From: Heptranchias perlo
Taxonomy: Eukaryota
Assembly: GCF_035084215.1 (NCBI RefSeq)
Contig: NC_090352.1
Location: forward strand, 28,830,001-28,894,000
Direction of reading: 5' to 3'
Length of the DNA stretch: 64,000 nt
Shown here: positions 20,966 to 56,612 of the stretch, piece by piece
Layout: every line of letters starts with the position of its first letter
How positions within the stretch are numbered: position 1 is the first letter of the stretch
The notes under the pieces: generated by a model
The model's input: only the letters and a program-made list of their open reading frames with translations
Database searches by the model: none
Told to the model about the DNA's origin: nothing
Made by a program: the position numbers and the translations under genes

Positions 20966-22932
20966 ATCACGAATGATACGTTGTTTCAGGACGGAGGCAA
21001 AGACAGAGTATTGGCTGTGGAGCTGAATTCAGATAAAGTAAATTCAATCGTAAACAAGAAAACACATTCTGCATTCATTACAGAATCAAAAAAAAGAGTA
21101 AAGACAATGTCAGCCACGATGGTATTTTCAAGACCAGTTCATTGCTCCCAACGTCCACCCACCAACACTAAACACCTTCCTTTCCTCAAACCATAATTGT
21201 GAACTACCAGATTGATACACATTTGCCCGAAAATGGGACCAATGGGAGTTTTTTTTTTAAAGTGGTAGGTAGATAAACTTATGCTTGACTGAAAGCAGTT
21301 CATCCATGTTAAAACAGGGCTGCATCTAACTCACCCACTAACAGAGTTCTACAAACAGGGCAAACACCTTAGTTGCTCTTGCACCCTGTTCAACCTACCT
21401 GCTTTATAGTAGTGCAGAGACCAATCCAATATATAGCAGGTTGGCAGAGTTCAGTGGAATGAAACAGTAATAAAACATAGACCAGTGCTGCACAGTCTAT
21501 CCCTAGTATAAATATTCATGTGGTTTTAAATCAGTGCTAAAACTCTACAGCAACCACCATAGGCATGGAACACTGTTAAAATTCATGATTTCATATTTTA
21601 GTGTGGGCCTACCTGATCTACAAACGGAGCTCCTACTTGAATGTAGTGCAAAGCAGCTTGGCTTTCTTTTGCACTAGCACCCAGTGTGACAAATATGATC
21701 TTGCACTGGTTATATTGTGTAAATAAAGCCATACAAAAAGGAGAAAAAAAACTATTTTTGCTTTCTGTTGGACTCTCCAATTTATCCAGTAAGCAGATGA
21801 GCCATATGACCAGAAGTTCCAAGTTTTAACACCTGAAAGAAAATAAAAATTAAAAAAAGCATGCATGCTTTATTGTATCCAGAACGACTAGATGTAAAGA
21901 CATGCTATGTGACTGACATACTTAAGTATGATATTATTAATTGCCAAATCTTTGCTGGTAGAATCTCCTACTATCACTGCCAATTGAGGCGTAATGCCGC
22001 AATAAAGAGCTACAGGAATCACAAGAGCCAGCTGGCTCAAGACAGATGAGAAAACTCCTGCAAGACCTAGCTTGCCCTCAGTGTTTCCCTGTATCTTTAG
22101 ATTGATAGGAACACCTTGAAACTCAACTAAACTGAAACCATGCGTCAACAGCAGCACCAATGCAAAGTCCTTCTCTTCATGTTTTGGCTTGTTCCCAATC
22201 AGATGCTGTTTGAATTTTCTTTTCACCCGCATAGCGTCTCTTTACAAATTGAACCATACACCAGGTTACGTTATTGGGGCTAGATTTGCACTATGCAAAA
22301 TATTGGGACAGTTGGAACAGCAGCAACCACAAAAAGGGAGTAAACAAAACAGAACACTGACCCCACCTAAACCTGAATTTCTCAATGCCTTCCAGGCACT
22401 GTGTCTCCCTGCCCCTATTAGTTCTGCTTTCTCTCACTAACAATCTCTTCCCCCACAACTCAAATTGCGCCAGATTCACTAAGGTGCGTGATTAGCCTAA
22501 TAAGGCCCAATCTACCTACATTAACCATCAGCACAGAGTATAAATTTGGACACTGACACACACAGTGCCCAAGAATCTCTCTCCCCAGGAGAACCGTTTA
22601 CACTGAGGTATTCAGCACCAATAGCATTCAGCGTCATAAGAGAAATATTTTCAAGGCATATTGGGTGAATTGGTATCAACAGATTTCAGAGAAGAAAAGC
22701 TCCCCAAAACCAAATGTTCGATGATAATTTTAGTTATCACCTCAAATTGCTCTCACCAGCACAGACAGCTTGTAACTACTAGCTCAAAATACCCTCTCCA
22801 GATACTAGCCAAGTTTGGAAGGACTAGATCTATAATTGTATTGCTGGGTGTTTTATCACAGTACAAGTGGACACCACCCAAAATGTCATATACCAATTAT
22901 ATTTTATTGAACTGTTAGTGATCCAATTAAGT

Positions 22933-23082
22933 CATGATGTGGAGATGCCGGTGATGGACTGGGGTTGACAATTGTAAACAATTTTACAACACCAAGTTAT
23001 AGTCCAGCAATTTTATTTGAAATTCACAAGCTTTCGGAGGCTTCCTCCTTCCTCAGGTGAACGTGGAGACTTCCTCCTTCCT
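22933..23082 (-). mobile_element. Short PLE-like insertion, family A, with hammerhead
   Basis: Starts CATGATGTGGAGATGCCGG; target-site duplication ATTAAGTCAT at 22926-22935 and 23083-23092. Confidence 0.75.
23022..23062 (-). ncRNA. Minimal type I hammerhead ribozyme motif (family A)
   Basis: GTTCAC-CTGAGGA-A-GGAGG-AAG-CCTCC-GAAA-GC-TT-GTGAAT. Confidence 0.7.
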
Positions 23083-23303
23083 ATTAAGTCATAACATACA
23101 AGGGTAGGGTGAATTTGTCTCACTAAAACAAAGTTGCTTTTATATATTAAGTCCATACCCAGGACGGGTGGCACCAGCTCCCAATGCCAGGGAGCTGTAC
23201 TGCCAGCTTCAACCCAAAAATAAACTTGCTGGGATTCGCCAAGGCGGCTGCCAGGAAGGCCTGGTTAAATGGTGGGTCTTCCTAGCTGCCCGTCTTTCTG
23301 AAT

Positions 23304-23524
23304 CATGTTTTGGAGATGCCGGTGATGGACTGGGGTGGACAAATGTAAGGAATCTTACAACACCAGGTTATAGTCCAACAATTTTATTTTAAAATCACAA
23401 GCTTTCGGAGATTATCCCCTTCGTCACATTCCTCACCTGATGAAGGGGATAATCTCCGAAAGCTTGGTGATTTTAAAATAAAATTGTTGGACTATAACCT
23501 GGTGTTGTAATATTCCTTACATTT
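23304..23524. mobile_element. Foldback PLE-like insertion, family A
   Basis: Inverted arms about 23341-23426 and 23438-23524; duplication TTTCTGAATCA at 23295-23305 and 23522-23532. Confidence 0.8.
23433..23470 (+). ncRNA. Minimal hammerhead motif (family A variant)
   Basis: TCAC-CTGATGA-A-GGGGA-TAA-TCTCC-GAAA-GC-TT-G-GTGA, with one extra G after the predicted cleavage site. Confidence 0.55.
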
Positions 23525-24934
23525 CTGAATCAAGTCAACATTACTTCTGGGTGAAGCCAGCTGTGCAAGAGCCAGGTGTCAGGGGTTTTGTGGGTCTTAG
23601 CTCAAAATAACAGCAACCTAAAACAGTTAACGGAACACACATGCATAGTTTTATTTGATCAGAAAAAAAAAATGATAAAGACTGAGATGCGATACTCAAA
23701 TGAACAGGAAATGCACCAGCACGTTCCAACATTCAGAAGAGAAGCTAGCATTATGTGCTTAAAAAGGTGGCCAAGGAAAACCCAAAAAAGCCGTGCAAAA
23801 TAATTAACAATTCAGCCTTTGACTGCTGCCGGCAAGCATACCTTTACCACAATATGCTGAATGTACAAGGATTGATAAGAATCCACAGGCTTTCTAAACA
23901 AAATGATTTAGTTTGCCCAAAGGCCCAAAGGAAATATCTGCAGGATCAAAGACTTGAGGTCACATTAAGTGTTAGCTTCATAGGGCACAGTTCCTCATCA
24001 AAAAAAAGTCATACATCCATGTCTGATTTGTAAAACTCTGCATGAATTCTTCAATTAAAAGGGAACCAATAAACCATGCACAAGTGTCCAATTGAACTCT
24101 TATTGGTATCGCAAATGCCACCTCGTCGTAGTTGGTTTTGTAACAGCAAGATCAATTAAATCTGCACAGTTACAAAATGGGTTAGAATATGTTTCTTTTC
24201 AAATTGAATTGGAACTGATCATTGACCCACTGTAAATCATTGGGGGGGGGCGGGGCATGCATTGGACCGTAATGAGCAGAGAACCATTAGCAGCAAATCA
24301 ATATCTGCAAACATATTTCACATACCATCAACCATTCTGGTAAAAATTTATAAATTTAAATTGGCTATTTGCAGAGATAAGTAGGTGCGCACATCTACAG
24401 TGGAAAGCTTTTAATCCTTTGAGAGTGGAGACAAACAGACGATTACAGCTGCAGGCATCTTCTGCTCAAGCAGTGGCGTGTAACTTGACATTTGCAGGTC
24501 AAAGCTCGAACTGAGATTTTCAGACTAGAAAGCTTCTGCCTTTACCCGATCAGCTAGCGATAAATAAATACAAATATATCATCGTTTATAAGCTGCCACT
24601 GGCCCAAAAAAAACCAAACTTACTTCACTTTATCCAAACTATTCATTAATTACTGCCTCACGTGCCGGGCAGACAACGGTTGCACTGATTCCAGTGTAAT
24701 GATGTTAAACCAGAGACGAACGGCCTGTTCCAGTGAAGTATCTTCCTCTGCTTTCCTCCATTTCCTTGACTGAACATTGGCCCAGCTCCCATCCCATGTT
24801 GCTTTTGCCTGACAGTTCATGTCCCGTCTCACACTGCAAGCCCACGTTTATCACCACTTTTTCTGCCCTCAGCCATCTGGCTGCGATACTCTTACATAAA
24901 TACAATGATTTTTTTTTTAAATAATCCAGCCAAT

Positions 24935-26199: not shown

Positions 26200-29100
26200 T
26201 GATCATTAAGGCTTTAGCCTCGCAAAGCACCCCCGTGTGGGTAAACCATGAAACCAGCAGAAATCTATTCCTATCAATCCTCACTCAGCCCTTTTCCATC
26301 AGCCGTCAAGAGCGATGACACAGACAGACACACGCAGACAGAGACACGCAGACAGAATCGACACAAACAATTACACCGTACATAATTTATGAAAGCGAGC
26401 TGCAGTTAGAAATGGGCACACAAGCAGAGCATGTGCGGCCACTTTTAAGAAAGAAACTCGAGCCAGGCCACAGACTCTAATGTAATGAAGATGTGACGGT
26501 TGCACGGAGCCCAGTGGGTTCACGGGGAGATCGTGTCATTGTTTTCTGCTGCCACCAGCAAACAAGGATCGAGTCTAGCCCCGAGCAATTCATTAATAAT
26601 ACGCCTGGGTTCAACTGCTGAGAAAGAGATAAAAGGGAAATGGGCCGTTTTGAATGATTGTAATTTTCCCCTCAATTATTTCCGAGTGACTGACATTAAT
26701 GTAATAAAATCTGGATTGGTTGTGAAGAATCTTCCCCATTCTAGTCGCAGCCCAAATAATATAAAGCAACTGATCTGTGGAGAACAGTAGCAAGTTGGAC
26801 TATAAGAACTTAAAAACAGTAGGCAATATGCTTCCTATTGCTGATAATTTGCACAGCAAAACTTAGAGAAAAATCGAGTTACATTATTTTATGATCGATT
26901 TTTTTTTGTGGCTCTTTTTGGAATAAGAGTCACAGAAATTTGAGGTTTTCCTGAATTTAGTTTTGACGAGGGAACCTTTCACTCCCCAGTTTCCTTGGAG
27001 TCTATGCAAACTACGGGCTACCATAACCCTACGTTTCGCCTTTCCGCAGTTGGTTACGTGCAAAAACATGTCGTGCATCAGTTGCAAATGTACCGTTGCA
27101 ATAAAGAATGCGAACAGTACAGTGGAGCATTGCTCTAAACAGGCCTGTACAGAGAGAGAAACAAGAAAGCCCAGGGGCATCTCCATTTCCTCTTCCTAAC
27201 CCCACGCCCAGCCCCGGCAAGTACCCATAACTGTCTTAAAAGGGAAAGGTCTCCCGTCTCAGTATCAAACACGTTCAGCTTTTTATTTCAAGAGACAAGT
27301 TACGATCGAAGCGGATACGAAGCGTTAAAAAAATCTGTACAAATTCAAACCCCGGTGTTATTTGTGGGTCCCACCTTTTTATATTAAAATAATCGTACGG
27401 AACGTCGAATCTAACGCCGATTCTCCACAATTTACCCAACACTGATCGGATTGATACACGTCGCCCTTCAAATACTCTTTTAAACTAAGGTTTCAATTAA
27501 ACTATACATGATTTAAAATCAAACTCCGGTAGAATAATCCCACAGCCGCCAGCACCAAACTTTACATCCGGCAATGCAGTGTCTGTATATACTGTAACTA
27601 ACACGCACCAAATACCAAATACGCACCAGATCCTATTTATCCTCTTATGCATCACATTTTGCATATATTTATACACACACACACACCAATGATCTGAATC
27701 TAGTACTAAACAGACCAAGGCAAGAGGAGCAGCCGATCCCCTTATCCCCGACTCGGTGCTAGGTTTTGAGAAGTTGTTCCAAGTTTTACCTGAGAAACTC
27801 CTGCAGGCAGGTGTCGCAGAAGCGGTGGCCACAGGTCGAGACTTGCACGGGTTCCCGCATCGGCTTGTTGCACAGAGGACACTGAAAGCGGCGCTTCGGC
27901 TTCTCTAGAAACTTATAATCGTAACCGGGCATGTTTGTATGTTTTTTTTTATATAAAAGAAACACGAGGATGTGAACAGTGCCGATCGCTAATTAATTTT
28001 AATTTAAAGATATATTAAGACAGGGTGAGATTACTGGGTCCGGTTGGGTTTTATGGCTGAGCTCCAATTTCTAAGGTACAGGCGGTTTAAGAAGCAAGCA
28101 GCCAGCTCTCCCTCCGGCCGGCTCTGAATGGAGAATGCCCGGTCTGTTGATGTTTGGAGGTGATTTTCCTGGAGGAGGTTCACGTGTTATCGAGGGAGGA
28201 GGAGATTCAGCAATTACACTGCTGACAGCGCGTCCCCGGGTCCTAGTGACAGAGACGTTACACGTTGTTACTGAGATTCTCCTTAGCCTTTCTGTACGAG
28301 TTATTTCTTTAATTTAAATGACTGAACACATTTATAAAGACACTTCTAGATAGCCTGAAAATGACAGATTCGTGCACTCAATCTTAGTGAGCTGTAATTT
28401 TAATAATTTTGCATATAAAAATTAGTCTCTGGAAGTATACAGTATTAAGTATATCATCTAACCCAATCAGCATATCCTTCTCTCTTCCTTTCTCCTTCAT
28501 GTACTTATACAGTGTTAAGTATACCGTATTAGTTAGGTATACAGTATATAATATTAAGTATACAGTATTGGAAGACTAAGTACGGCATTGTTGGCTGGTA
28601 TCTATAGAATTACAAATGCTACATATTTATTGACAACTGAATTTCTTGTATCGGCGCCGCTGTTGTTTCCATCACACTCTTCCCATTACGGTTAGAGTTA
28701 GCGAAAGGACAGCCAGTTGCCTTGTTTCAGGGTTAAATGAGCACAAAACAGCCCCTTGTCTCGGAACATCCTGCCACATTAGCAAAAAAAAAACGGCAGC
28801 TGCATCTCTACCCTTAACCCGACTCAGTCGGAAGCAGAGAGCGGGATGCCAAAGTTAAAAGGTTATTTCTAATAGACATTCCTTTGTAAGCAGTGCTGGG
28901 CGCCAACTCATTTCATTCATTATCCTAAACAGCTTTATATTTTTTTAAGAACATCGAGCGACTGTATACTATCCGGATATATATTCAGTCCTTTGTCCTG
29001 GTAAACAAGCGAGACTCGGGCCCCGACTGACCATTTCCAACAACTGTGGGATTTCCCCCCCTGCTGTGAATCATGGAACTGCTGTTTTTCAAATCCCTTC

Positions 29101-32392: not shown

Positions 32393-32490
32393 TTCAGTTC
32401 TGACGAACCTGAAACGTTAACTCTGTTTCTTTCTCCACAGATGTTGCCTGACTTGCTGAGTATTACCAGCATTTTCTGTTTTTATTTTAT
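32393..32490 (+). mobile_element. PLE terminal-repeat fragment, family B, hammerhead stem II deleted
   Basis: agttCTGACGAacctGAAAcgttaactctgtttct...gacttgctgag. Confidence 0.7.
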
Positions 32491-33399: not shown

Positions 33400-33845
33400 A
33401 TAGAAAGACTGGCATGAATATAATACCTTTCATGAGCTCAGGATGTCCCAAGGTGCTTTACTGTGAATGAAGTACTTTTGAGGTGTAGTCACTGTTGTAA
33501 TGTAGGAAACACGGTAGCCAATTTGCACACAGCAAGGTCCCACAAGCAGCAATGAGATAATGATCAGATAATTTGTTTTTCAGTGGTGTTGGTTGAGGGA
33601 TAGATATTGGCCAGGACATTGGGGAGAACTCTCCTGCTTTTCTTCAAAAAATGATCTTTTACATCCACCTGAGAGGGCAGATGAGGCCTCAGTTTAATGT
33701 CTCATCTAAAAGACAGTGCAGCACTCCCTCAGTAATGCACTGAAACATTAGCCTGCATTATGTACTCAGGTCTCAGGAGTGGGACTTGAACCCACAACCT
33801 TCTGACGCAAGAGGTGAGAGTTCGACCCACTGAGCCACAGCTAAC
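33400..33845 (-). mobile_element. Deu-domain SINE
   Basis: Reverse complement is colinear with 61024-61472. Confidence 0.85.
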
Positions 33846-33974: not shown

Positions 33975-34628
33975 GCTCAGCAAGTCACGCAGCATCTGTG
34001 GAGAAAGAAACAGAGTTAACGTTTCAGGTCGAAGACCTTTCGTCAGAACTGGAAGATGGTAAGGAGCTAACAGTTTTTAAGCAAGTACAGAGCCAGGGAA
34101 AGGGACAGAGGAGAGGAAAGAACAAAGGGGAAGGTCTGTGAGAGGATAGAGGAAAAGAGTGATTAAATGACAAAAGGGATGATGGTGCAAGGCAAGGAGG
34201 GTGGTAATGGGACAAGTTAAGAAACAAAAGATGGGTCTAAAGGAGCCATAAATGGCAACAGCAGAACCATTATCAGCAGGTGCAGTCTCACAAAAAGAGA
34301 AAAAAAATGGGAGCAGTGGTTCTGATCTGAAGTTAGTGAAATCAATGTTGAGTCCGGAAGGTTGTAAAGTGCCTAAACGAAAGATGAGGTGCTGTTCCTC
34401 GAGCTTCCGTTGAGCTTCATTAGAACAGTGTAAGAGGCCGAGGACAGAGAGGTCAGAGTGGGAATGGGACGGGGAATTTTTATGGATACGTGGAACATTC
34501 CTTGTTCTAGTCCTACTCAGGTCCCCCCACCCCACCTCTTTTCCTGGTACACTGATGACTGTATCGGTGCCGCTTCCTGCTCTCACCCCAAACTGGAAAA
34601 TTTCATCAACTTTGCTTCCAATTTCCAG
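33975..34628 (-). mobile_element. Penelope-like element remnant with an inverted internal segment
   Basis: Minus strand 33975-34477 has the GIY-YIG C-terminus (SHSHSDLSVLGL...RKLEEQHLIFRLGTLQPSGLNIDF), 3'UTR and hammerhead. Plus strand 34478-34628 has a degenerate RT fragment (YVEHSLF...YTDDCIGAASCS...ENFINFASNF). Confidence 0.85.
34014..34050 (-). ncRNA. Minimal type I hammerhead ribozyme motif (family B)
   Basis: AGTT-CTGACGA-A-AGGTC-TTC-GACCT-GAAA-CG-TT-AACT. Confidence 0.7.
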
Positions 34629-35400: not shown

Positions 35401-38344
35401 CTAGTCCCAATTGCCTGCACTTGGCCCATATCCCTCTATACTCATCTTACCCATGTAACTGTCCAAATGCTTTTTAAAAGACAAAATTGTACCCGCCTCT
35501 ACTACTGCCTCTGGCAGCTCGTTCCAGACACTCACCACCCTTTGAGTGAAAAAATTCCCCCTCTGGACCCTTTTGTATCTCTCCCCTCTCACCTTAAATC
35601 TATGCCCCCTCGTTATAGACTCCCCTACCTTTGGGAAAAGATTTTGACTATCTACTTATCTATGCCCCTCATTATTTTATAGACTTCTATAAGATCACCC
35701 CTAAACCTCTACTCTCCAGGGAAAAAAGTCTCAGTCTATCCAACCTCTCCCTATAAGTCAAACCATCAAGTCCCGGTAGCATCCTAGTTTCTGCACTCTT
35801 TCTAGTTTAATAATATCCTTTCTATAATAGGGTGACCAGAACTGTACACAGTATTCCAAGTGTGGCCTTACTAATCTCTTGTACAACTTCAACAAGACAT
35901 CCCAACTCCTGTATTCAATGTTCTGACCAATGAAACCAAGCATGCTGAATGCCTTCTTCACCACCCTATCCACCTGTGACTCCACTTTCAAGGAGCTATG
36001 AATCTGTACTCCTAGATCTCTTTGTTCTATAACTCTCCCCAACGCCCTACCATTAACGGAGTAGGTCCTGGCCCGATTCGATCTACCAAAATGCATCACC
36101 TCACATTTATCTAAATTAAGCTCCATTTGCCATTCGTCGGCCCACTGGCCCAATTTATCAAGGTCCCGTTGCAATCCGAGATAACCTTCTTCACTGTCCA
36201 CAATGCCACCAATCTTGGTGTCATCTGCAAACTTACTAACCATGCCTCCTAAATTCTCATCCAAATCATTAATATAAATAACAAATAACAGCGGACCCAG
36301 CACCAATCCCTGAGGCACACCGCTGGTCACAGGTCTCCAGTTTGAAAAACAACCCTCCACAACCACCCTCTGTCTTCTGTCGTCAATCCAATTTTGTATC
36401 CAATTGGCTACCTCACCTTGGATCCCGTGAGATTTAACCTTATGTAACAACCTACCATGCGGTACCTTGTCAAAGGCTTTGCTAAAGTCCATGTAGACCA
36501 CGTCTACTGCACAGCCCTCATCTATCTTCTTGGTTACCCCTTCAAAAAACTCAATCAAATTCGTGAGACATGATTTTCCACTCACAAAACCATGCTGACT
36601 GTTCCTAATCAGTCCTTGCCTCTCCAAATGCCTGTAGATCCTGTCTCTCAGAATACCCTCTAACAACTTACCCACTACAGATGTCAGGCTCACCGCGGTG
36701 TCTGTAGTTCCCAGGCTTTTCCCTGCCGCCCTTCTTAAACAAAGGCACAACATTTGCTACCCTCCAATCTTCAGGCACCTCACCAGTAGCTGTCGATGAT
36801 TCAAATATCTCTGCTAGGGGACCCGCAATTTCCTCCCTAACCTCCCATAACGTCCTTGGATACATTTCATCAGGTCCCGGAGATTTATCTACCTTGATGC
36901 GCGTTAAGACTTCCAGCACCTCCCTTTCTGTAATATGTACACTCCTCAAGACATCACTATTTATTTCTCCAAGTTCCCTAACATCCATGCCTTTCTCAAC
37001 AGTAAATACCGATGTGCAATATTCATTCAGGATCTCACCCATCTCTTGTGGTTCCGCACATAGATGACCTTGTTGATCCTTAAGAGGCCCTACTCTCTCC
37101 CGAGTTACTCTTTTGCCCTTTATGTATTTGTAGAAGCTCTTTGGATTCTCCTTTGCCTTATCTGCCAAAGCAATCTCATGTCCCCTTTTTGCCCTCCTGA
37201 TTTCTCTCTTAACTCTACTCCGGCAATCTCTATACTCTTCAAGAGATCCACTTGATCCCAGCTGCCTATGCACGTCATATGCCCCCTTCTTCTTTTTGTC
37301 TAGGGCCACAATCTCCCGAGTCATCCAAGGTTCCCTACTTCTACCAGCCTTGCCCTTCACTTTATAAGGAATGTGCTTACCCTGAACCCTGGTTAACACA
37401 CTTTTGAAAGCCTCCCACTTACCAGACGTCCCTTTGCCTGCCAACAGACTCTCCCAATCAACTTCTGAAAGTTCCTGTCTAATACCATCAAAATTGGCCT
37501 TTCCCCAATTTAGAATTTTAACTTTTGGGCCAGACCTATCATTCTCCATAGCTATCTTAAAACTAATGGAATTATGATCACTGGTCCCAAAGTGATCTCT
37601 CACTAACACTTCTGTCACCTGCCCTTCCTTATTTCCCAAGAGGAGGTCAAGTTTTGCCCCCTCTCCAGTCGGGCCATCCACATACTGAATGAGAAATTCC
37701 TCCTGAATACACTCAACAAATTTCTCTCCATCCAAGCCCCTAATGCTATGGCTGTCCCAGTCAATGTTGGGAAAGTTAAAGTCCCCTACTATTACCACCC
37801 TATTTTTATTGCAGCTATCTGTAATCTCCTTACATATTTGCTCCTCAATTTCCCGTTGACTATCTGGGGGTCTGTAGTACAATCCTATCAAAGTGATCTC
37901 TCCCTTCTTATTTTTCAGTTCTACCCATATATACTCAGTGGGCGAACCATCGGATATATCCCCTCTCACAACTGCCGTGATGTTCTCCCTAATCAAGAAC
38001 GCAACTCCCCCTCCTCTCTTACCTCCTGCTCTATCTTTCCTATAGCATCTGTACCCTGGAACATTGAGCTGCCAGTCCTGCCCCTCCCTTAGCCATGTTT
38101 CAGTAATAGCTATAACATCCCAGTACCATGTACCCATCCATGCCCTGAGTTCATCTGCCTTGCCCATCAGACTTCTTGCATTGAAATAAATGCAGTTTAA
38201 TCTAGACTTCCCTTGGTCTTTGCCCTGCTTTCTCAGACCATCTGTCCGGTCATGTTTTGTACACTCTCCCTTACTGCCTTTTGTTTCTGTCACCACTTTA
38301 CTTCCCACTGACTTCCTGCATCGGTTCCCATCCCCCTGCCACAT
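35401..38344 (-). pseudogene. CR1 ORF2: AP endonuclease and reverse transcriptase, frameshifted near 36700 and 35790
   Basis: APE motifs YFNARSL, ITETWL, VGDFNFP and SDHN; RT motifs MDFSKAFDKVPH, GVPQGLVLGPLLF and FADDTK; C-terminal FFTQRVVSVWNELP. Confidence 0.95.
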
Positions 38345-39296
38345 TAGTTTAAACCCTCCCCAACAGCACTAGCAAACACTCCCCCCTAGGACATTGGTTC
38401 CAGTCCTGCCCAGATGCAGACCGTCCAATTTGTACTGGTCCCACCTCCCCCAGAACCGGTTCCAATGGCCCAGGAATTTGAATCCCTCCCTCTTCCACCA
38501 TCTCTCAAGTCACGTATTCATCCTAGCTATCCTGTCATTCCTACTCTGACTAGCCCGTGGCACTGGTAGCAATCCTGAGATTACGATCTTTGAGGTCCTA
38601 CTTTTTAGTTTAACTCCTAACTCCCTAAATTCAGCTTGTAGGACCTCATCCCGTTTTTTTACCTATATCGTTGGTACCTATATGCACCACGACAACTGGC
38701 TGTTCACCCTCCCCCTCCAGAATGTCCTGCAGCCGCTCCGAGACATCCCTGACCCTTGCACCAGGGAGGCAACATCCCATCCTGGAGTCTCGGTTGCGTC
38801 CGCAGAAACGCCTGTCTATTCCCCTTACAATCGAGTCCCCTATCACTATAGCTCTGCCACTCTTTTTCCTGCCCTCCTGTGCAGCAGAGCCAGCCATGGT
38901 GCCATGAACCTGGCCGCTGTCACCTTCCCCTGGTGAGCCATCTCCCCCAACAGCATCCAAAACGGTATACCTGTTTGAGAGGGGGATGGCCACAGGGGAC
39001 CCCTGCACTACCTGCCTGCACCTCTTACTCTGCCTGGTGGTCACCCATTCACTTCCTGCCTGTACACCCTTTACCTGCGGTGTGACCAACTCGCTAAACG
39101 TGCTATCCACGAGTTTCTCTGCATCGCGGATGCTCCACAGTGAATCCACCCGCAGCTCCAGCTCCGAGATACAATCGGTCAGTAGCTGCAGGTGGACACA
39201 CTTCCTGTACACATGGTCGGCAGGGACACTGGTAGTGTCCATGACTTCCCTCATCTTGCAGGAGGGGCATATCACGGGTGCGAGGTCTGCTGCCAT
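38344..39296 (-). pseudogene. CR1 ORF1: zinc-finger/leucine-zipper region plus SGNH esterase domain
   Basis: CPSC...RKC motif, heptad LTDCISELELRVDSL, then GDSIVR, PGARV and HIGTNDI; continues after an extra A (about 38654-38660) to DGLHL...GLN*. One internal TGA and a second frameshift in a G6 run. Confidence 0.88.
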
Positions 39297-40112
39297 GACT
39301 TGCCTTAGCTTAGTTACCTCTTTTAAATTACGTTGAAATTCGAAAATGTTTACTAGGGACCTAGGTTCACTAAAAAAAAAACTACCTGCTATAAAATCTG
39401 TAGACCTTAAGTTTAGTCAATTAGTTAATTATAAATGTGGTTATGTTACCTGGTTTTATTGTAACTTAGCCCACAGTTCTAAGAAAAAGAAATACTCACC
39501 ACCAACCACCCACCTGCTTTACCGGTGACGTCACTCTTTGATTTCATTGTTCTGTGAGGCTCATTCTGCTGCTCCTTATGCATAATGACAAGTTGTCCCA
39601 TAGGTTTTCACTATAAGGGAGAAGTAAGTTAATTGTGTTTTATTCATTCCGTTACATGGTAAATAAGTTGAGACTTTTTACTCAGCAGTACTGCTGCATA
39701 CTCATCTGTTCAGTGTCCCTCAGGTTGGTATCTAGGATATTACAAAGCAACAACTTCTCTGTTAGTGTGTATGGTGGCCCTCCAGTATGGGAAATCATCT
39801 CACAAGGACAATCTTTCTCCATCGGAGGAAACATTGGGCCAGAATTTGCTGGAGTGGGACGTGCCCCATGTATTGGATTTTTTCCCTCACCCTAGAAATG
39901 TTTTTGTGCTGCAAATTGCTGGGAGCGCGAGTTGATAATGGCGCAGCGAGGGCAACTGGGCCTCTGGGACCAACAGTCTATCTCCTTAATCAATTAAATT
40001 TAAAGATAAAGAAAGAAACAGAGGAACAATGGAGATGGAAATATGGTGAATTAGAGTCAAAATTAGGTACAGAAAGAGAAATAGAGAGGGAAGAAAAGAT
40101 TGGATTAAGAAA

Positions 40113-40223
40113 TGATGTGGAGATCTTGAAACATTTACCTGAGGAAGGAGAAAATCTCCGAAAGCTTGTGAATTTAAAATAAAATTGCTGGACTATAACT
40201 TGGTGTTGTAAAATTGTTTACAA
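40113..40223 (+). mobile_element. Family A insertion with inverted body and hammerhead on the plus strand
   Basis: TGATGTGGAGAT stub followed by the reverse-oriented body; duplication TGGATTAAGAAA at 40101-40112 and 40224-40235. Confidence 0.75.
40133..40173 (+). ncRNA. Minimal type I hammerhead ribozyme motif (family A)
   Basis: ATTTAC-CTGAGGA-A-GGAGA-AAA-TCTCC-GAAA-GC-TT-GTGAAT. Confidence 0.7.
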
Positions 40224-41711
40224 TGGATTAAGAAAGAGAGAGAAAAAAGAGACAAAGGAAAAGTAAGAAAAAAAATTACATTTTAAGAAACCTCTAGGAT
40301 CAATTTACTACCTGCAGGACTGAGACTCCATCGTTTCAAATGTTCCTTTCCTGGGCCTTTGAGGTTGAGTGGCATTGCAGGAACATAAATATTGTCATTA
40401 AAAGGGTTCCTTACATTGTTAAAAACCAGCCCTAACATTCTGCAGCAAGTTTAATTCGTTTGAGCAGTGCAAATGCAGCAATTTTTTGAAATTCATAGGA
40501 AGGTTGAGGGTGAGCTGCGGTTTTTGCGAGGCTAACGGTTGAGCGGCGCAAATCACCCAGCAATTTGTGGCGATTTGCAACTCATGGCCTATCTCTTCAT
40601 TGCCACAAATTACTGGGTTTTTACAAACTAATAACGGTGTGGGCATTTAAGTCACCGTTATTTTCTCAGCAAACTCTAGGCCATAATTAACTGGACTGAA
40701 GGTATCACCTACTTGTAGCAGATGCGTTCTTTATTTATAAAGATACAGCTGATCTCGGCTGGGGTAAGGGTAGAGGTGCATCAGTTTGGCAGCCGAGAAC
40801 CCCAGGATTTCAAATGGGTCATCCTGTAATTTTTAAAATATTAAACAGGCACCAAAGGTTTGGTTTTGAAATCAGAATTCCATTTCTTTTACATTTCTGT
40901 GTCTTATGATGTGGATGCATTACTAGTTATTAAAACTTTCAAAGAACTTTCATCAGTAACTTGAAGTCGTATCAGATTTTATTGGTGATAGTTAGAAAAT
41001 GTAAACATTGGCATCTGCGACAGCTGTGAGAAAGTTTTAAAACTTTCAACTTTAAAATGGGATGGGATAAAAATGATATGATCAGTAAAGGAATATTTAT
41101 ACACGTATTACATACAGACAGACACACACACACACTTCGACAGTTTTCACAGAATAATGGGCAGAGTCAGGGAACTGAAACTTCAAAGCACTGATAAAAA
41201 TCCCAGAATACATGTAATAAAAAGTGATTTTGACTTATTGAATCACTGTAAATCAGTGGCCCTAATGTTATTCCCGAGATGGCATAACAGTTCAGCGTGA
41301 ACAACTCAATGAGGGATCTCCTAGATTAGGACATAACACGCAGGATACCCATAGTATCTCTTTTGGCATCTGTAAAGAGAAAATGCAGGTCAATGTTTGA
41401 AGTCTGGACCCTTCCACCAGGAATTTCCTTCGAGCTTCTCCTGCTCCTCTGCAGAAAGTTACAGCGGTGGAACGGAAGAAGCCCTGAGGAAATTCCCAGC
41501 GTTTGTCAGAACCGAACACCGGAAGATATGTGAGCTACCTGATGGAATTGAAGAAAAGCACACAGTGAGAGAGGAGAGGAAGGAGATAATGGACTGCACG
41601 CCTAAACAAGTTTTATTCAAAAGATGGAAGGAGGTTAAAGTTGGTGGAAGATAATCTCAGTGAAGCACTGGAAAGACATTAAAAGAACACAGGGTGTTAA
41701 AATCCCTAACG

Positions 41712-43210: not shown

Positions 43211-45246
43211 TTATATAGTAAGTTAGGTATTTAATAGAATAATATTCAAATAATTGTTTAAATTCATTGTTTGAATCAGATTTGAAATCTGAGGAATTAT
43301 AGTCTATGTCTGTACGTGAGGCAATTTACTTATCAGGATTTTGTCCACCATTTTGAAAATTATGCCAATGGGATAAAGTTGAGGGCAACAGCACCCAACT
43401 GAATTTTAATAATTGATGTTGACATGTTGCTCCAGAATTCATTGGCACTATAAATATTTCAAATTTGTAACTACATTTCAAGTGATGGCCGACTGTCTCA
43501 CCATTAAGTGATCTTTGCTTTGGTTTCTTTCCAGCTGAAGTAGAGCACATGGGCCACTACTGCGTTAAAGGCATTTACAGGCCCAGAACAATAAATTTGA
43601 ACAAACCCCATGATACAATTCTGACTAAGATAATTCCTGGATGGGGTAGTATATAGGAATTGCTTTAATCTGCGCAACTGAATCAATTATGAAAATATAA
43701 GGCAGTTGAAAGCAAGAGTATTCAAAAAGTTTGTATTATCTATAAAAAATAATTCTGTCCTCTTCCAATTTTTTCCACTTGTTTTCTCCTGAGGATGGTG
43801 ACTCAAACTTGGGACACTTCCATAAATGGAAGCAAGCGTTGGTAACCCATATAAACACCAGCTATCCAGGTGTGAATTTGGACAATGCATGTCAGTGGGC
43901 TATTGCACTCTGGGGTTATTATAGGCAAGTGGAGTCCTGTCCTCAGCTCGTACCCCCGCGTCCATGTCAGGATCAGCAATAGGTGCTGGACAGCAGACAG
44001 AATCAGAAACCATCACAGCTCAAGAGACACTGAGGTCAATTGTGAGCCTCTTGCTACCAGCCTCACTGAAGGCAATGATCAAAGCTGGGACCAACCTGCT
44101 CTGCATTGATCCACCAAGCCTTGGGGTTGGGGGAATGAGTAATTATACTTCATTCGTTAAAAAGAATTTGGCAAATCATTGAGGACTATCAGTGCCATAC
44201 TTTCCACTTTGGTCACATAGATCAAGTACAGCACAACCACATACAGCTTAAAACTAACCCTGCTTTGTTACAACAATGCACCTTAACCCCAATGAGAATT
44301 TCCACACACCAATCACTATAATGGCCTCTGTAAACCAAATTGCTAATTTAGTAAGAGATTAAAATAAAAATGTGCACATTCTGAAATAAATTATTGCAAA
44401 TATACAGCAGGTAGTCAGCAAGGTCAACGTTTTGCATAGACAAACATTGGAACTAATAATTTGTGGCAAATAATGGGCCCTGTACTGTGGGACCTCATGA
44501 ACTCATTTCATTTAGAGTCCTCATAGCTGGCAGAGAGAGTGCTTTTATCCAATTGGTCCAGGATGGATTTAGAACCTAGGTCCACATCTTGAGGTGAAAA
44601 GATAATATGTGAAACCCATTACACCATAGTAAGTGTACACTTAGAAGCAACAGGACAGTTATACCAACAGCAACACAAAACTTTCCGGGGAACAAAATGA
44701 TTAGTTCAGTATTGGGTCAAAGCAATTGTTCCTAATAGCCACAGTATTGCCTAAATTTCCACAGTACGCCCCAGTAAAAAGATACCTCTCCTGTCATCAA
44801 CGTGTTTCAGAAAATGTCAGGCAGCATCCCCATAGTTTTGCAATTCACACCGGTGGTGGACAGTGTGTACTCAGGAAATTAATTCTATGACTAGACAGCT
44901 TTGATTCTCCTAATTTTTCTCATACCTGGACTATTTCAAACATTGCTTGAATCATTGAATGTGACCAGCATTTACAAAGTAGTTCTTCTTTAAAGGTTAC
45001 CACTGAGGACATATTTTCTGAGTAACATGTTTCATAAGGAAGATGTTAATTCAATATGGCATCAAAAACAAAAAGAAAAATCAACGTTTACATACAGTTC
45101 CTGTGGTTGAGAAATTGAGTGGCTTCTCAAAATAAAATAAAAACTGAATGTCACAATCTGTAGGTGAAGACGGAACCTGCCTGAAATTTGTCATTACTTC
45201 ATTTTGTTTGAGGTATTACTTTTAGGGTAACAACCTTTTAGGTTTC

Positions 45247-45708
45247 AGCCTTGGTTCAGTTGTAGCATTCTTGTCTCTGAATCAGAAGGTCATGGGTTCA
45301 AGCTCCACTCTCAAGAGACTTGAGTACATAATCTAGGCTGACACTCCAGTGCAGTACTGAGGGAGTGCTGCACTCTCGGAAGTGCTTTCTTTTGGATGAG
45401 ATGTTAACTTGAGGCCCCATCTACTCTCTCAAGTGGATGTGAAAGATGCCATGGCATCATTTGCAGAAGAGTAGGGTAGTTCTGATGTCCTGGGTAACAT
45501 TTATCCCTCAACCAACATCACCAAAACCAGATCAACTGGTCATTAATCTCCTTGCTGTTTGTGGGATCTTGCTGCGTGCAAAGTGCATGCCGCGTTTCCT
45601 ATGTTACAACAGTGATTACACTTTAAACATACTTCGTTGGCTGTGAAGCGCTTTGGGACATCCCGAGAACGTGAAAGGCACTACATAAATGCAAATTCTT
45701 TCTTTCTT
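45247..45708 (+). mobile_element. Deu-domain SINE
   Basis: Colinear with 61024-61472. Confidence 0.85.
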
Positions 45709-51420: not shown

Positions 51421-52935
51421 ATGTAGTAACTACCGTAGGTATTGTCGTCACACTGACACCACTGTGCTTTTGAGGTTTCTTTCAAATAGCAACTCAGTGT
51501 GAGGGAGCCCATTTATGAAGGGATGATCATTTAAGGTTATTTGGTAGAGGTGCAGGTTTTGTAATGTTTTTAATCTAACAAATCACTTCAACTTTCAAAC
51601 TTTAGACAACCCAAACTTTTAAAACTAGGTAAGTCAGCACAATTTATGGCACCCATCAATTTATTTAAAAGGAGAAAAAAAATTATATTTTCCTAAAAAA
51701 AAATTATTCTTGGCAAATCAAATTCTTCAAATCATGTCTAAGAACATCTGTTAATATTCACTCCTGCCAAGTTGATGCAAAGAAAAACAAAAAAGATTTT
51801 GGCAGTGTTTAAAATGATTGCAGTATCCCCCGACTGCTTTTCTAAGTGGTAGGAATATACTAAAAATGGCAACGAGGCAGGCCTGCTTGTTTACTTTGGC
51901 AGGGAATCCCCTCAAGATGTGCCAAAAAAATTATATACTTATATAAAGCATCTGTTTTCAGAAATGAGAATATTGAAAATCATAAGTATTGGAGCCTCTG
52001 CTGTCAAAAATGGCCATCTCACTTATTTGCAAATAGGAAAACATTCTTAAATAATGGGGTGTACTCATATCTTCCATTAACAAGCAGTTCGGAGAGAATT
52101 TCCAGCTTTCTATTTGCTAGCCAATAAATCAGTATTAGGGGGAGTCCCGTCACACTCCTTCCCGCATCAATTATTCTTCCACCTCCAATTTTCTTGCTTC
52201 TCTTCCTGAAGGCACCAAATTACTGAGGTATATTCCCATGGGCACCAGCATCCCTCCAGTTCCTTGTGCTTTCTTCATGTGTAACTCTAAAGAGTGAATG
52301 TCAGCAGGGAAGTCAACCATCCGGAAACATCACAGTCCTGCCTGTCTTGTTCACGTTTGCACACTTTCCGTACAGGGTTCATTGGCTAGCAATCAGGAGC
52401 TGAAAACCAGAGTGATTTTCTTCCCTCCCTCACCCAGCGGTGCTGACGCCAGTTACAAGCTACTGCCACTTTAGCAGAGATTGGCTAACTCAGCACAGAC
52501 CCAGAATTGAACCCAAGATCTTCCCAGTCCATGTGACTCAGTTCCACTTTGAGCAGTGCATTTGTTATTGGAGGTGCTCGGTCACATTTTTTAACCCATT
52601 AAGGACTGTAGCAGAAATTCTGTACCGCATTGATAATTATTACGTGACTGCAATACACGTCAATTAGTTTCTTTTGCCAGTAATCTACTACCAAAAAAAA
52701 TTGCCATGCACTTACTTATTATAAGCTCTTCTGTCACTATCTATTATTATTTCACCCCATATCACACTATGATACTGGTTGCAAAAAAAAGTGTAAATGA
52801 TAATATCCTTTACCACATAGAATAGCTTAACAAATAGTTGGCAGTGAATTTAAAATGGAAAATTCAATCTCAAAGATATGCTGACATTTATAAACAATTT
52901 GTGTGTATCTGTTGCAGGTTATGAGCCTTTTAACT

Positions 52936-53212
52936 GGAGAAGGTTGTGTGTTCGAGTCCCACTCCAGGAACTTGATCACAAAATCCAGGCTGACACTGCA
53001 GTGCATTGCTGAGGGAGTGCCGCATTGTTGGAGGTGCCGTCTTTCGGATGAGACGTTAAACCGAAGCCCCGTCTGCCCTCTCAGGTGGACGTAAAAGAAC
53101 CCATGGCATTCTTCGAAGAAGAGCAGGGGAGTTCTCCCCAGTGTCCTGGCCAATATTTATCCCTCAACCAACATCACTAAAACAGATTACCTTGTCATTA
53201 TCACATTGCTGT
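52936..53212 (+). mobile_element. Deu-domain SINE, truncated
   Basis: Well-preserved core ggaggtgccgtctttcggatgagacgttaaaccg. Confidence 0.85.
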
Positions 53213-53864
53213 TTGTCTTTCTTTCATTTATGTAAGTCTTTCTTTCTTTTATACCTTCTACATAACCGTCCACAGTACACTGCCTTTCCAGGACCAGTGA
53301 TTCTGAAATCTAAACACAGTGGAAAAATTACTGCAATCAGTTGCTTGCTAAATTATCCTCCAGCATCTGTTTTTCTGCCTCTGACATGTATGATTATGAT
53401 TCAGTACATTACAGTGGACTGCATTTTTGTAAATTACTTTCCTTGTCAGCTGACAATATCTCAACCGTGGCATCAGTGCTCTGTGCTGATAGGTAGCATG
53501 GTTTTAGCTGATTAAACATCAGCAGTACCCTTGCTCGGGAGTTTCTAAGCTGTGGCTGTTGCCAACCTGTGCCTAAGCTAATTGGACTTGGGTAAGTGAG
53601 GTGTGCCCTGACAAGGAGAGTGTACAAGCATATTGGGTGAACAGAAGCCCTCTGGATTTCTCAGTAGCTTCTCATGGAAACTCTTAAAACAGGATGAAGG
53701 GTTTCTACATGCACCGACATCCAGCTGGACCCCTTCCCACAAATGAAAAAAACCAGAGGATTCTGAAGGGGAAAGGTCCAGGGAGTGTGCTCCAGGGTAT
53801 AATGCAGTCTTGGGATTCAGGAAATAAGCCAAATCCTCTCAATGCATATTATACCCTTACTGGT

Positions 53865-54021
53865 CATGATGTGGAGATGCCGGTGATGGACTGGGGTTGA
53901 CAATTGTAAACAATTTTACAACACCAAGTTATAGTCCAACGATTTTTATTTGAAATCTACAAGCTTTCGGAGGCTTCCTCCTTCCTCAGGTAAATGTCAG
54001 GAGCTCCTTGAAGCCTACGCA
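53865..54021 (-). mobile_element. Family A insertion with hammerhead
   Basis: Near-identical to 22933-23058; duplication TTACTGGTCA at 53857-53866 and 54022-54031. Confidence 0.78.
53955..53995 (-). ncRNA. Minimal type I hammerhead ribozyme motif (family A)
   Basis: ATTTAC-CTGAGGA-A-GGAGG-AAG-CCTCC-GAAA-GC-TT-GTAGAT. Confidence 0.7.
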
Positions 54022-56612
54022 TTACTGGTCAGTCTATGTAGAATATAGTATGTCCCGAATTACCCTGGAATCTACTACAATTTTTGCCTTCTCATAAACT
54101 GCATGATGTCACTACAAAAGAATACCCTCCATGAAAGTAAGCTGCTCTTATCTGTTTTAATTCAGATATCAGCGTCCATGAGCTGCTTCTTAGCATTTCG
54201 TGGTTAAATCTATTTTTCTGTAGCTTGATGGCAGACTCATACACTGATGTCCTGAAATCCGAATTAAAAAAATATAAAAGTAATGTAAATTAGCATTGAT
54301 TACGGAGGCACAGCACAATGAAGCATTTAAAACTCAAACTCCATCCTCAATATGTATTTTATGCAGAAGTACAGACACAAGGGACTGAATTACAAAACTG
54401 TAATCTAAAGCTAAGTGTTCAGATAGTGTTCAAAGATGTTTATCACATCCCTTGATTGGGTTATGGACTTGCAGCTCACTCACAGGTATCCATTATGCTA
54501 GATGTAATTTCTTGTCAGCTTAAAATGGACCGCAAATAGATTGATGTTCTTATGCACTAAAGGGCAATTGTGGAAAATACAACAAGGCTAGAATTTCACC
54601 AGCAAATGTAACACAGTGCGTGAGCATCCAAGATTTCTAATGTGGTAACCTGGCTGAACCTTCTGCTACTTGTACAGACCTATTTAGCTAAATTTTAATT
54701 GAGGATGTGAGTCATTGAATGGTGCAAAGTTGATGATTTATAATAATCCCGCTGTATGTGCAGAATAACTAAATGGAATAGGTTGTGTTCATTGACAACT
54801 AGGTACCAGGTCATAGTGCCATGCCAATAAAACTGTGCACTTTGCATTGGTGTATCAGGATTACAACTGAATAATCAGAAGGAAAACTCCTTAAATGATT
54901 TTTAACAGGCCAGCGCCTCATAGTGGCTCAGTTAATAAAGGCAGTGTATCATTTGGCCTTGCACGCCAGAAGATGTCAGTGAGTGGTGATTTTTTTCATT
55001 TCAGTAGGGAAGCAATTGCCCTCAGTGCCCAGGGAGGGAGGAGAAAATCAATCGGGGTTCCTGCTCCTGGTCATTATCCAGTAACCCCTGCTGGGAAGTA
55101 CACGAGTGGACAGTGGGTAAAGGACATGATTGGGCACAACATTAATACCCACCATAGTCAAATAGTGACTGCTGATGCTCACTGGGCTCATAGATGATAA
55201 AATGGCAACCAGGGCAAAATGCACCTGTGGAATTGCACCTAGTGCGAGTATATGTCTTCAAGTAATATGGGGGTACAAAATTGATAGACAAAATTGGCAA
55301 AAAAAAGTGGATGGAGTCTGATTTCCCGTATTGCACAGAAGGAAGTGAACCAGCTTTACTTTTTTTTTTATTTTAAGTACGTTCCAGCCTTGAAAGCATT
55401 AAACTGATCCCACTGTCCCCTCAATTAAACTTGTAACCATTTAATTCCAATTAAATTCTGTCCATCAAATTGTTCAAGCTGCTGAACTGCTGGAGTGTCT
55501 GTCTTTAATACTATTGGTGGGGACCATTCTGCCATTACAGGGCACCTTTCAGATGCAAGTTATGAACGCTGATGTCAGCCATTTGAACAAAGTAATTTAT
55601 TGGTGGTTTTCTGTGGCAGCTGTGAAAACCATCGGAGTTTCTACCCAAATTAGTACCAAAAAAAAAGCTTGGAATTAGTCCCGGAAAATGTCATAATAAA
55701 ACTGTAAAACATTACAAATGTCTGCACAAGATTTAATTTGCAGCTACTTCCTCTGATCCCGTATTACATGTCACCAAGCTCGTTACTGAACTGAATACCT
55801 GGCACTGCTAATGAAGCAAAAATCTGGTTGCATTTAACTCTGGGTCTTGGTTTAGTGCTAATACCAAAGGAATTTATAGGAGGCCCAATTTGCAGACAAG
55901 TTTCCTAACACTAGGATATATTAACGTATTAATGGCAAAGTGCAGCGTGTGACAACCGAAGGCATTTTGTAGTCTTAACTGTCTCAATAAGAACCATTTA
56001 GTGAGATACAGTCATAGTATTAAGAAGTTATGCATAGTCATAGTATGGGTTTTTGCAATCAGAACAGAATGTGAAAATATGGGGAACATTTGGCTACTCA
56101 AAGCCTATTCCCAAATGCCAACAATACCAGACATTCAGCGGTATTTATACAAAAAGGCACCTAGAATGCTGCCGCAAAAGCATGTCCGTTCCTTCACTTT
56201 GGTCACTTTCTTCTGGCTTTGTCCAGTACCAGCCAATCTCTGATCCAACGTAAAAACAGCAGCTTCAAACTGAATGCTTCAGCTCATCTTGGAATGGATT
56301 CATCTCCTAAAGCTACAGTGAATTATACATTGTAAAAAAAAAAGATTAAGTGATATTTAAATAATCCTCTGTATACTATTTACAAAACAGTATCCCCCCA
56401 CTATATACTCATATTGACAGTACTCTTTTGCTTAAAACAGCATTAAGCACTTTCGAATTAGTTATGCTCTTGGAATATATGATTATGTGTTAACTATACA
56501 TAGAGTCTTGCTCATAGACCACTAACAAAATGTTTAAAGAGAACACACTTAGCTGAGAATACAAAGACATACAACTAAAACAATTAGAAATTGTTCAAAG
56601 TAGATTCCTTAC

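Follow-up and report, generated by a model that had tools for sequence, protein, structure and literature searches.

Four related insertions of 147, 216, 111 and 155 bp (copies A–D) lie in a 64,000-nt window of the Heptranchias perlo genome, the window being the whole stretch of DNA that was analyzed. They raise the question of what kind of element leaves such short copies and what part the hammerhead ribozyme motif found in them plays. The initial annotation had described four insertions of about 110–220 bp with target-site duplications (TSDs) of 10–12 bp, and this description holds: exact TSDs of that length lie at the borders of 4/4 insertions, which measure 111–216 bp, and the targets are AT-rich (Table 1). 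A repeat of at least 10 bp was found in 1 of 2000 random boundary pairs. The pairwise identity of the copies is 69–81 over 85–87 positions of the common core, and the copies differ by 5–20%.

The copies have a common anatomy, consisting of a hammerhead motif, AATAAA, a hairpin and a 37-nt AC-rich tail at one end. AATAAA is present in 5/5 arms and is likely the poly(A) signal of the repeat. In two of the four insertions, B and C, an inverted tail-less arm stands opposite the tail end, and copy B (23306–23521) is a head-to-head inverted pair with two damaged hammerhead motifs. The arms of B are identical to each other at 83/86 positions and to any other copy at 69–75 of 85–87; because they are closer to each other than to the other copies, the mirror arm came from the same source. 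A tail of 30–40 bp at one end and an inverted 5'-truncated copy form the signature of Penelope-like retroelement (PLE) insertions (PMC8557442; PMC3846280), and both are seen here, the inverted arm in 2/4 insertions, which favors reading the stubs as pieces of PLE pLTRs. PLE insertions likewise have a head-to-head arm of this kind, a tail at one end only and, as here, a pLTR TATA box readable in both directions; their TSDs are 8–10 bp (Arkhipova et al. 2013, PMC3846280; Craig et al. 2021, PMC8557442). The present copies differ from them in consisting of repeat throughout and in having no coding part. We consider it very probable that the insertions are stubs, 5'-short and inverted, of the pLTR of a PLE with an endonuclease, and that they arose when RNA that had not been cleaved was reverse-transcribed from internal priming sites.

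The 5' ends lie just above the hammerhead and vary among the copies: part of A is duplicated internally, and D extends 26 nt further. This bears on the possibility that A and D are solo repeats which, in the manner of solo LTRs, remained after the two pLTRs of full-length insertions had recombined. Both are indeed single units in direct orientation with TSDs intact on both sides, and solo pLTRs are mentioned for Adineta (PMC3846280); however, besides the variable 5' ends, recombination would not yield the inverted arms of B and C, and the 12-nt tail stub of C points to an aborted cDNA. We regard this origin as highly improbable.

Table 1. Positions of the insertions and their parts in the 64,000-nt window.
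Feature	Position	Strand	Remarks
Copy A TSD, tail side	22926..22935	none	10 bp; partner 23083-23092; last 3-4 bases also match element 3' end
Copy A, 147 bp	22936..23082	-	intact hammerhead preceded by 18-nt partial repeat of its 5' half; then AATAAA, hairpin, tail
Copy A minimal type I hammerhead	23022..23062	-	predicted cut between 23028 and 23027
Copy A AATAAA	23012..23017	-	~10 nt 3' of predicted cut
Copy A AC-rich tail, 37 nt	22934..22970	-	ends mapped on copy D
Copy A TSD, 5' side	23083..23092	none	partner 22926-22935
Copy B TSD, 11 bp	23295..23305	none	partner 23522-23532
Copy B tail-bearing arm	23306..23426	-	stops within hammerhead core; lacks C3 and stem I 5' strand
Copy B inverted tail-less arm	23427..23521	+	hammerhead 23431-23471, one extra G after cleavage triplet
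Copy B TSD, second	23522..23532	none	partner 23295-23305
Copy C TSD, 12 bp	40101..40112	none	partner 40224-40235
Copy C tail stub	40113..40124	-	final 12 nt of tail only; matches tail ends of A and D; opposite orientation to rest of C
Copy C tail-less arm	40125..40223	+	intact hammerhead 40133-40173; predicted cut between 40167 and 40168
Copy C TSD, second	40224..40235	none	partner 40101-40112
Copy D TSD, tail side, 10 bp	53857..53866	none	partner 54022-54031
Copy D, 155 bp	53867..54021	-	26 nt upstream repeat, intact hammerhead, AATAAA, hairpin 53905-53920, tail 53866-53902
Copy D hammerhead	53955-53995	-	predicted cut between 53961 and 53960
Copy D TSD, 5' side	54022..54031	none	partner 53857-53866
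Probable fifth copy, 3' end	1..17	+	cut by window edge; 17/17 match, E 0.002; stops <=2 nt from tail-less boundary

When the five arms were used to build a covariance model, it brought up no additional copies in the window, the next best hit having an E value of 0.14. Four features had escaped the initial annotation: the inverted arms in B and C, the tail of 37 nt, an additional A ahead of stem II and the probable end of a fifth copy at 1–17.

A strict descriptor of the type I minimal hammerhead gave three matches in the window, in A, C and D, and none in 200 dinucleotide shuffles. The claim that each insertion carries a hammerhead is correct for these three but not for B, in which both motifs are damaged (the plus arm retains the core and the minus arm lacks C3), leaving the hammerhead intact in 3/5 arms. 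Its core is CUGANGA with one extra nucleotide, here an A between A9 and stem II, followed by stem II, which is opened by G10.1–C11.1, and GAAA; stem II has 5 bp with a 3-nt loop 2, and stem I has 6 bp. CTGANGA by itself is not enriched in the window (43 vs 35.9 ± 6). The AGCT palindrome, to which stem III had been said to be reduced, is present and followed by T in 5/5 arms, the palindrome lying across 15.1–16.1 and the triplet being of the NUH type, and the predicted cleavage after GAAAGCUU is placed correctly.

The motif lacks a stable stem III: in the monomer it would be a single A–U pair closing two bases, and the AGCU duplex was computed at -2.5 kcal/mol. Such a hammerhead is predicted to be unable to form stem III alone and would cut only as a pair sharing a 4-bp AGCU helix, in agreement with the dimer-only architecture suggested earlier; copies that stand alone are probably inactive. 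Stems I and II are reproduced by the centroid folds of A, C and D (z -1.75 to -1.96; 8–12/200 shuffles equally stable). For an outer stem on the 3' side of the hammerhead, the prediction is good in B alone (0.78–0.85, versus 0.01 in A). No contact between loops 1 and 2 could be assigned, which makes the hammerhead minimal rather than canonical. Rfam gave no match above the gathering score at the copies, and none of the five weak matches up to E 10 belonged to a hammerhead family.

The proposed link to the minimal hammerheads of PLEs is supported by the published consensus, CUGANGAH-stem II-GAAAN-palindrome-NUH with AU-rich flanks (PMC4209133 Fig. S3), which the motif fits. The hammerheads of metazoan PLE pLTRs are likewise of type I, with CUGANGA and an extra nucleotide before G10.1–C11.1, GAAA, a 2-nt palindromic spacer, UH and AU-rich flanks, and they too occur mostly as solo copies, with some close pairs on opposite strands (Cervera and de la Pena 2014, PMC4209133). 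Among the rows of that study, Chrysemys (turtle) agrees with the repeat here in the G C U U that follows GAAA and in the AGCU palindrome, and Latimeria(1) agrees with it in CUGAGGAA; relative to Schistosoma, our stem II is shorter (5 bp and a 3-nt loop vs 7–8 bp) and stem I longer (6 vs 4–5 bp). This kind of motif, including the AGCU palindrome, has thus been in print since 2014, although the searchable part of the supplement to PMC4209133 contains no chondrichthyan term. In the literature on shark Penelope hammerheads we found no description of this repeat family, which Repbase, Dfam and several supplements may hold. Five 13–16 nt words of the repeat retrieved a single unrelated paper, and one supplement of PMC8557442 gave no match.

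Covarying stems had also been claimed. The stem I and II sequences given were correct, and stem II is 100% paired across the five arms, with one compensatory pair (G–C in A and D, A–U in C and both arms of B) and one wobble change. However, 26/500 shuffles reach the covariation score and 40/500 the share paired; the covariation is thin, does not go beyond the shuffle control, and is of a size that kinship alone can give. An apparent conservation of the hammerhead across contigs (10/10 listed variable sites outside it, p ~0.03) was set aside, as the table misses the stem II variants shown by B and C.

Public contigs on copy D show a very high-copy repeat with depth limited to 53856–54023 (~160 bp). 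The left flank of D was uncovered in every run, to which no weight can be given, and none of the runs listed for the repeat is recorded as RNA. At the tail end the flanks are heterogeneous, with unrelated loose letters before 53866 in 86, 8 and 5 contigs (runs X1, X5 and X9), and these short contigs have no common continuation beyond the tail. Both observations agree with the suggestion that most copies are the terminal repeat alone. Two joints listed in run X1 lead to 53902, the tail-less boundary, and the tail-less ends of the B plus arm, C and window 1–17 fall within 4 nt of one another. The window and the contigs therefore have two fixed 3' ends, 37 nt apart. PAc of Anolis (Penelope/Poseidon) likewise has two fixed ends, ~85 and 122 nt after the hammerhead, that delimit an AC-rich tail, and AT-rich targets; two RT start sites flank its tail, cutting and extension take place on both strands, and its copies are made from uncut RNA (Frangieh et al. 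2024, PMC11167929). The PAc ORF starts inside the hammerhead, whereas no reading frame crosses the hammerhead here, all three frames closing within 30 codons, a point against our explanation. TSDs start with TGA in three of the four insertions, matching the bases after the element's common end, which suggests microhomology, possibly of 1–4 nt, at the priming or tail junction. This weighs against the stub interpretation, since PAc starts are reported at non-homologous sites (PMC11167929).

Depth is not lower upstream of the predicted cut (2.7 million at 53952–63 and 4.8 million at 53964–75 in X1), and both ribozyme halves are present in every full arm. Uncut hammerheads in contigs and full arms are as expected if uncut RNA is the template. 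Depth does fall above 53999, but the drop is partly subfamily divergence, as loose ends at 53991 start like stem I of copy A, and this counts against our explanation. No copy begins or ends at the predicted cut site, and the hammerhead appears not to define an inserted end here.

These ends also bear on the label "retrozyme-like" in the initial annotation. The insertions could be offspring of an independent non-autonomous retrozyme, a 125–160 nt unit from tandem arrays whose dimeric hammerheads would cut out monomers to be circularized and re-inserted by borrowed PLE enzymes. Animal non-LTR retrozymes are likewise short and non-coding, with a type I hammerhead, TSDs of >4 bp and pLTR ancestry, and their derivatives are taken to include solo "monomers" (Cervera and de la Pena 2020, PMC7229834; 10.64898/2026.07.22.740005); tandems derived from pLTRs have been preprinted for one chondrichthyan genome (Li, Clavereau and Pollet 2026, 10.64898/2026.07.22.740005). 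The limited depth and the lack of a parent ORF in the window would fit such a unit, and a few X1 joints (54023 to 53902, 53989 to 53902 and 54023 to 53869; depth 26–81, kind not given) could be head-to-tail junctions, but they are rare against summed depths in the millions. Self-comparison of the window found 0/4 copies in head-to-tail tandem; all have the same 3' ends, which are those of the PLE tail, and are not circular permutations, and the hammerhead is not canonical. Because the definition of a retrozyme calls for circular RNA and for tandem units in which two or more hammerheads are complete (PMC7229834; 10.64898/2026.07.22.740005), the label is not supported; the tail and inverted arms are the ordinary signature of PLE insertion, and we judge a retrozyme origin improbable. 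Nor is recent activity of the family shown: the B arms differ at 3/86 positions and the copies by 5–20%, in a lineage with a very low mutation rate.

No RT-GIY-YIG ORF adjoins any copy within the window, and Pfam searches of 364 stop-free frames of at least 55 aa found no PLE RT or GIY-YIG domain there. The earlier statement that the window holds no coding parent of the family agrees with this, as a weak negative, since Pfam also missed a real PLE remnant at 34.2–34.6 kb. In tblastn searches with 11 PLE-like proteins, the window yielded only this remnant, a CR1 LINE and an RT scrap at 11036–11152. As an analogue within the window, a second hammerhead family, with an ACGT palindrome, lies 270–290 nt behind a PLE-type endonuclease C-terminus at 34.3–34.6 kb. 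The repeat pattern occurred in no viral contig and no prokaryotic genome searched; two metagenome matches were rejected as chance, since they lie within coding DNA of bacterial appearance and lack a surrounding hammerhead or tail. We infer PLE membership of the repeat from its anatomy, its coding parent not having been found.

The CR1-like LINE at 35761–38368 is near full-length, with RT and AP endonuclease, and 10–12 bp TSDs are also compatible with LINE insertion; a SINE-like repeat moved by this machinery, with the hammerhead-like motif a chance or fossil feature, might be imagined. However, self-comparison revealed no 3' end in common with the LINE, the repeat has no poly(A) or tandem tail, its fixed ends at two sites and its inverted arms that overlap are characteristic of PLEs, and the motif exceeds chance expectation by far and agrees with the PLE consensus (PMC4209133). 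The probability of this explanation is close to negligible.

For the PLE stubs, a mechanism can be outlined by analogy with PAc. A GIY-YIG/RT protein would nick both target strands, and cDNA synthesis would be initiated internally, from the tail end in some cases and from the tail-less end in others. Priming on both strands would give one cDNA per site, joined head to head, as in B (121 + 95 bp) and C (12 + 99 bp); single priming would give A and D. Hammerhead pairing could occur in RNA spanning two pLTRs, with cutting predicted to be slow or protein-aided. The weakest step, which we put forward with some doubt, concerns the excess of 110–160 bp copies: the element's own mRNA may contain the start sites in its 5' pLTR, so that the cDNA would run off the RNA 5' end just above the hammerhead. 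More tentatively still, the tens of thousands of such copies might be "strong-stop" products, if the mRNA starts just above the hammerhead, ~30 nt below the two-way TATA box, and only this 5' leader is copied from internal primings at the hairpin-marked site and the tail end.

If this is true, one autonomous PLE would flood the genome with MITE-like stubs, with no separate non-autonomous RNA needed, and the stubs would map the start site and both priming sites in vivo. The hammerhead would then be a dimer-gated switch that removes RNAs from the pool and does not shape the template. PLE ends with minimal hammerheads are known in thousands of copies from many vertebrates. Inverted insertions as small as B and C preserve a compact natural record of priming from both sides, and a repeat of high copy number with two sharp 3' ends and clustered 5' ends offers an in vivo test of the internal-initiation model, which so far comes from one lizard element.

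The four copies of family A in the window (copies A–D) are likely stubs of the pseudo-LTR belonging to a Penelope-like retroelement (PLE) with a minimal hammerhead, a known kind of sequence. They were detected by self-comparison of the window, in which one member, copy B, appears twice in opposite orientations, along with a 17-nt match at the window start. The copies are bordered by exact repeats of 10 (A), 11 (B), 12 (C), and 10 bp (D), which enclose 147, 216, 111, and 155 bp, respectively; a border repeat of 10 bp was reached by 1 of 2000 random boundary pairs. In the shared core, copy A is identical to D at 81/86 positions and to C at 81/85, while the two arms of copy B match the other copies at only 69–75 of 85–87 positions and each other at 83/86. 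Copy B therefore represents a separate subfamily, with both arms from one source. The first 18 nt of copy A (23065–23082) partially duplicate stem II and the 5' half of the copy's hammerhead, which probably resulted from template jumping at the 5' junction.

Coordinates of the features in the window
Feature	Position	Strand	Remark
Copy A	22936–23082		
Copy B, tail-bearing arm	23306–23426	minus	
Copy B, inverted tail-less arm	23427–23521	plus	
Copy C	40113–40223		
Copy D	53867–54021		
ACGT-palindrome minimal-hammerhead family	6831–6936, 19574–19657, 19673–19767, 32400–32487, 33975–34052		five pieces
PLE-type GIY-YIG endonuclease C-terminal remnant	34293–34619	minus	270–290 nt upstream of the 34046 hammerhead
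CR1-like LINE, near full-length	35761–39416	minus	esterase-type ORF1 remnant, AP endonuclease, RT; frames broken
RT and AP endonuclease of the LINE	35761–38368		
TRAF-type RING exon, first coding exon	27789–27932	minus	GT donor at its end; best solved relative TRAF6
RCC1-repeat exons	56587–56856, 59784–59972	minus	
Dispersed repeat, ~460 bp	9814–10283, 33402–33844, 45233–45708, 61022–61472, 52938–53216		at least 5 copies, 74–81% identity
Direct duplication, 240 bp	57558–57795, 58065–58302		87% identical, 507 bp apart

A type I minimal-hammerhead descriptor matched 7 sites in the window versus 0.11 expected, and 5 sites with a palindrome versus 0.01. With strict stem lengths it matched three sites, in copies A, C, and D, versus none in 200 shuffles, which upholds the hammerhead motif proposed in the initial annotation. 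In these copies, a 6-bp stem I is followed by CUGAGGA, an additional A, stem II (5 bp, 3-nt loop), GAAA, GC, and UU. Stems I and II form in folds of the isolated motifs, and their probabilities in whole-copy folds are ~0.6 in A, 0.7–1.0 in C, and 0.2 in D. The annotation had placed a hammerhead with covarying stems in each insertion, and both points were overstated. Copy B has no intact motif: its tail-bearing arm stops at U4, and its tail-less arm has an additional G behind the triplet. All five arms have a paired stem II, in which one change is two-sided and another is a wobble, and stem I pairing is 80% when the B arms are counted, but the covariation is only suggestive because shuffle controls reached its score in 26/500 cases and the pairing in 40/500. 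Family A has the extra nucleotide, the palindrome, and the AU-rich flanks in common with the PLE minimal-hammerhead consensus (PMC4209133 Fig. S3), and the machine-read text of that figure gives G C U U behind GAAA in the Chrysemys row. Self-cleavage of family A is thus a prediction: a Schistosoma motif showed no cleavage of the monomer and low cleavage of the dimer (PMC4209133), that of Anolis showed cleavage only in the presence of protein and was dispensable for insertion in vitro (PMC11167929), and among Xenopus dimers 1/9 cleaved (preprint 10.64898/2026.07.22.740005).

On the 3' side of the hammerhead, all arms carry AATAAA ~10 nt past the predicted cut, then a GU-rich segment and a hairpin of 6 bp. 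This hairpin is closed by A-U in A, C, and D and by G-C in the tail-bearing arm of B, and the pair is broken in the other B arm; one such change was reached by 184/500 shuffles and is not significant. A 37-nt AC-rich tail continues A, D, and the tail-bearing arm of B. The ends of the tail-less arm of B, of copy C, and of the match at window positions 1–17 lie within 4 nt of each other at the hairpin foot, and the first 12 nt of copy C are the end of the tail, inverted relative to the rest of the copy. Copies B and C therefore have an outward tail end on one side and an outward tail-less end on the other, as in the PLE architecture described as an inverted 5'-truncated copy with a 30–40 bp tail at one end (PMC8557442, PMC3846280). 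Two internal sites at which the RT starts delimit the tail of the Anolis Penelope/Poseidon element, whose protein cuts as well as extends the two strands of the target (PMC11167929). Copies B and C would be products of two-sided priming, and their overlapping arms would need two template passes.

From three end features found in the sequence and from the motif consensus, family A likely belongs to the PLE class. A second family in the window, marked by an ACGT palindrome, supports this assignment by analogy, as its copy at 34046 lies directly behind a PLE-type endonuclease C-terminus. Its hammerheads are intact at 6930 and 34046 (minus strand) and damaged in the other three pieces; two pieces of opposite orientation lie within 19574–19767. 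The endonuclease segment is a remnant of the coding parent of the ACGT family; among 76 candidate proteins it has 11 matches, of which two carry the PF26215 domain and the best has a faint GIY-YIG score, and it was missed by the Pfam search. For family A, no linked ORF was found next to any copy in the window, and parent scans were negative or weak. Unlike in the Anolis element, all three frames through the family A hammerhead close early. Three of the four duplications (A, 22926–22935; B, 23295–23305; D, 53857–53866), read from the tail side, start with (A)TGA, extending the common end of the element, which reflects either primer-template microhomology or target preference. The Anolis element is said to lack such microhomology, so this hint counts against the PLE reading. 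The literature search, which did not extend to Lunse et al. 2017 or to the repeat libraries Dfam and Repbase, yielded no description of family A.

Part of copy A was found in 19 public sequencing runs from 9 studies, and the 8 runs that match at least half of its words are all from one sample, possibly the one from which the window derives. The contigs aligning to copy D numbered 15645 in run X1, 3178 in X5 (same sample as X1; RNA only a guess), and 175 in X9, which comes from a different organism in a separate study; X11 gave 0, a zero that may be false. The summed X1 depth over 53868–53999 was 1.5–6.5 million versus 21 on the unique right flank; this sum is not a copy number and is inflated up to ~31-fold by overlapping short contigs, and we estimate that the copies still number in the thousands to tens of thousands after correction. 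Loose ends before 53866 agree poorly (0.36–0.58), which fits a tail end inserted at many different sites, and no shared continuation past that end was present among the contigs listed for copy D. Upstream of the predicted cut the depth shows no fall, and both ribozyme halves are present in all full arms; the template of the inserted cDNA was therefore uncut RNA. Joints to the tail-less boundary or tail end were few (depth 26–81), and short tandems are possible elsewhere in the genome.

Toward the 5' end, the depth declines from 3.9 million (53976–53987) to 0.3 million (54000–54011), loose ends are concentrated at 53991 (86) and 53997 (37), and three of the five arms (A, the tail-less arm of B, and C) start 8–14 nt above C3. 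Tentatively, and with somewhat less than even confidence, we read this pattern as cDNA running off an mRNA 5' end. Subfamily divergence would produce the same clustering and depth fall, and the loose ends at 53991 start like stem I of copy A. As for the run-off reading, 16, 4, and 2 contigs run on at 54023 in conserved sequence (agreement 0.77–0.97), and this continuation completes a TATAAAT box on the element sense strand, 30 nt above 53997.

The window is eukaryotic, with a G+C content of ~41%, and the best named relative of one retroelement remnant is a skate protein, which makes a cartilaginous fish the most likely source. Copies A and B lie 4–5 kb 3' of the donor of the TRAF-type RING exon (presumably TRAF4), with A in sense orientation, and are probably in the first intron; no later exon was present among frames of at least 55 aa in the window. 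Copy D, in sense orientation and carrying AATAAA, lies ~2.6 kb past the stop codon of the RCC1-repeat gene, which we take to be NEK8, and might lie inside or terminate its 3' UTR, with further AATAAA words in between. One 2433-nt contig of X5, whose RNA origin is a guess, begins within copy D and spans the right flank.

The arms of copy B differ at 3 of 86 positions, or 1.7% per arm (95% range 0.4–5.1%). At the epaulette shark rate of 7 x 10^-10 per generation (PMC10587355), this corresponds to roughly 5–70 million generations, an upper-side figure given that one of the changes falls on a CpG and that errors of the RT, or the use of two templates, may have contributed. The 43 duplicated bases contain no mismatch, which is compatible with up to 7% divergence. 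With this distance between the B arms, the recent activity initially proposed for the family is not borne out by the four copies. Young copies may be present in the genome, given that 6533 of the 15645 short contigs are at least 99% like copy D.
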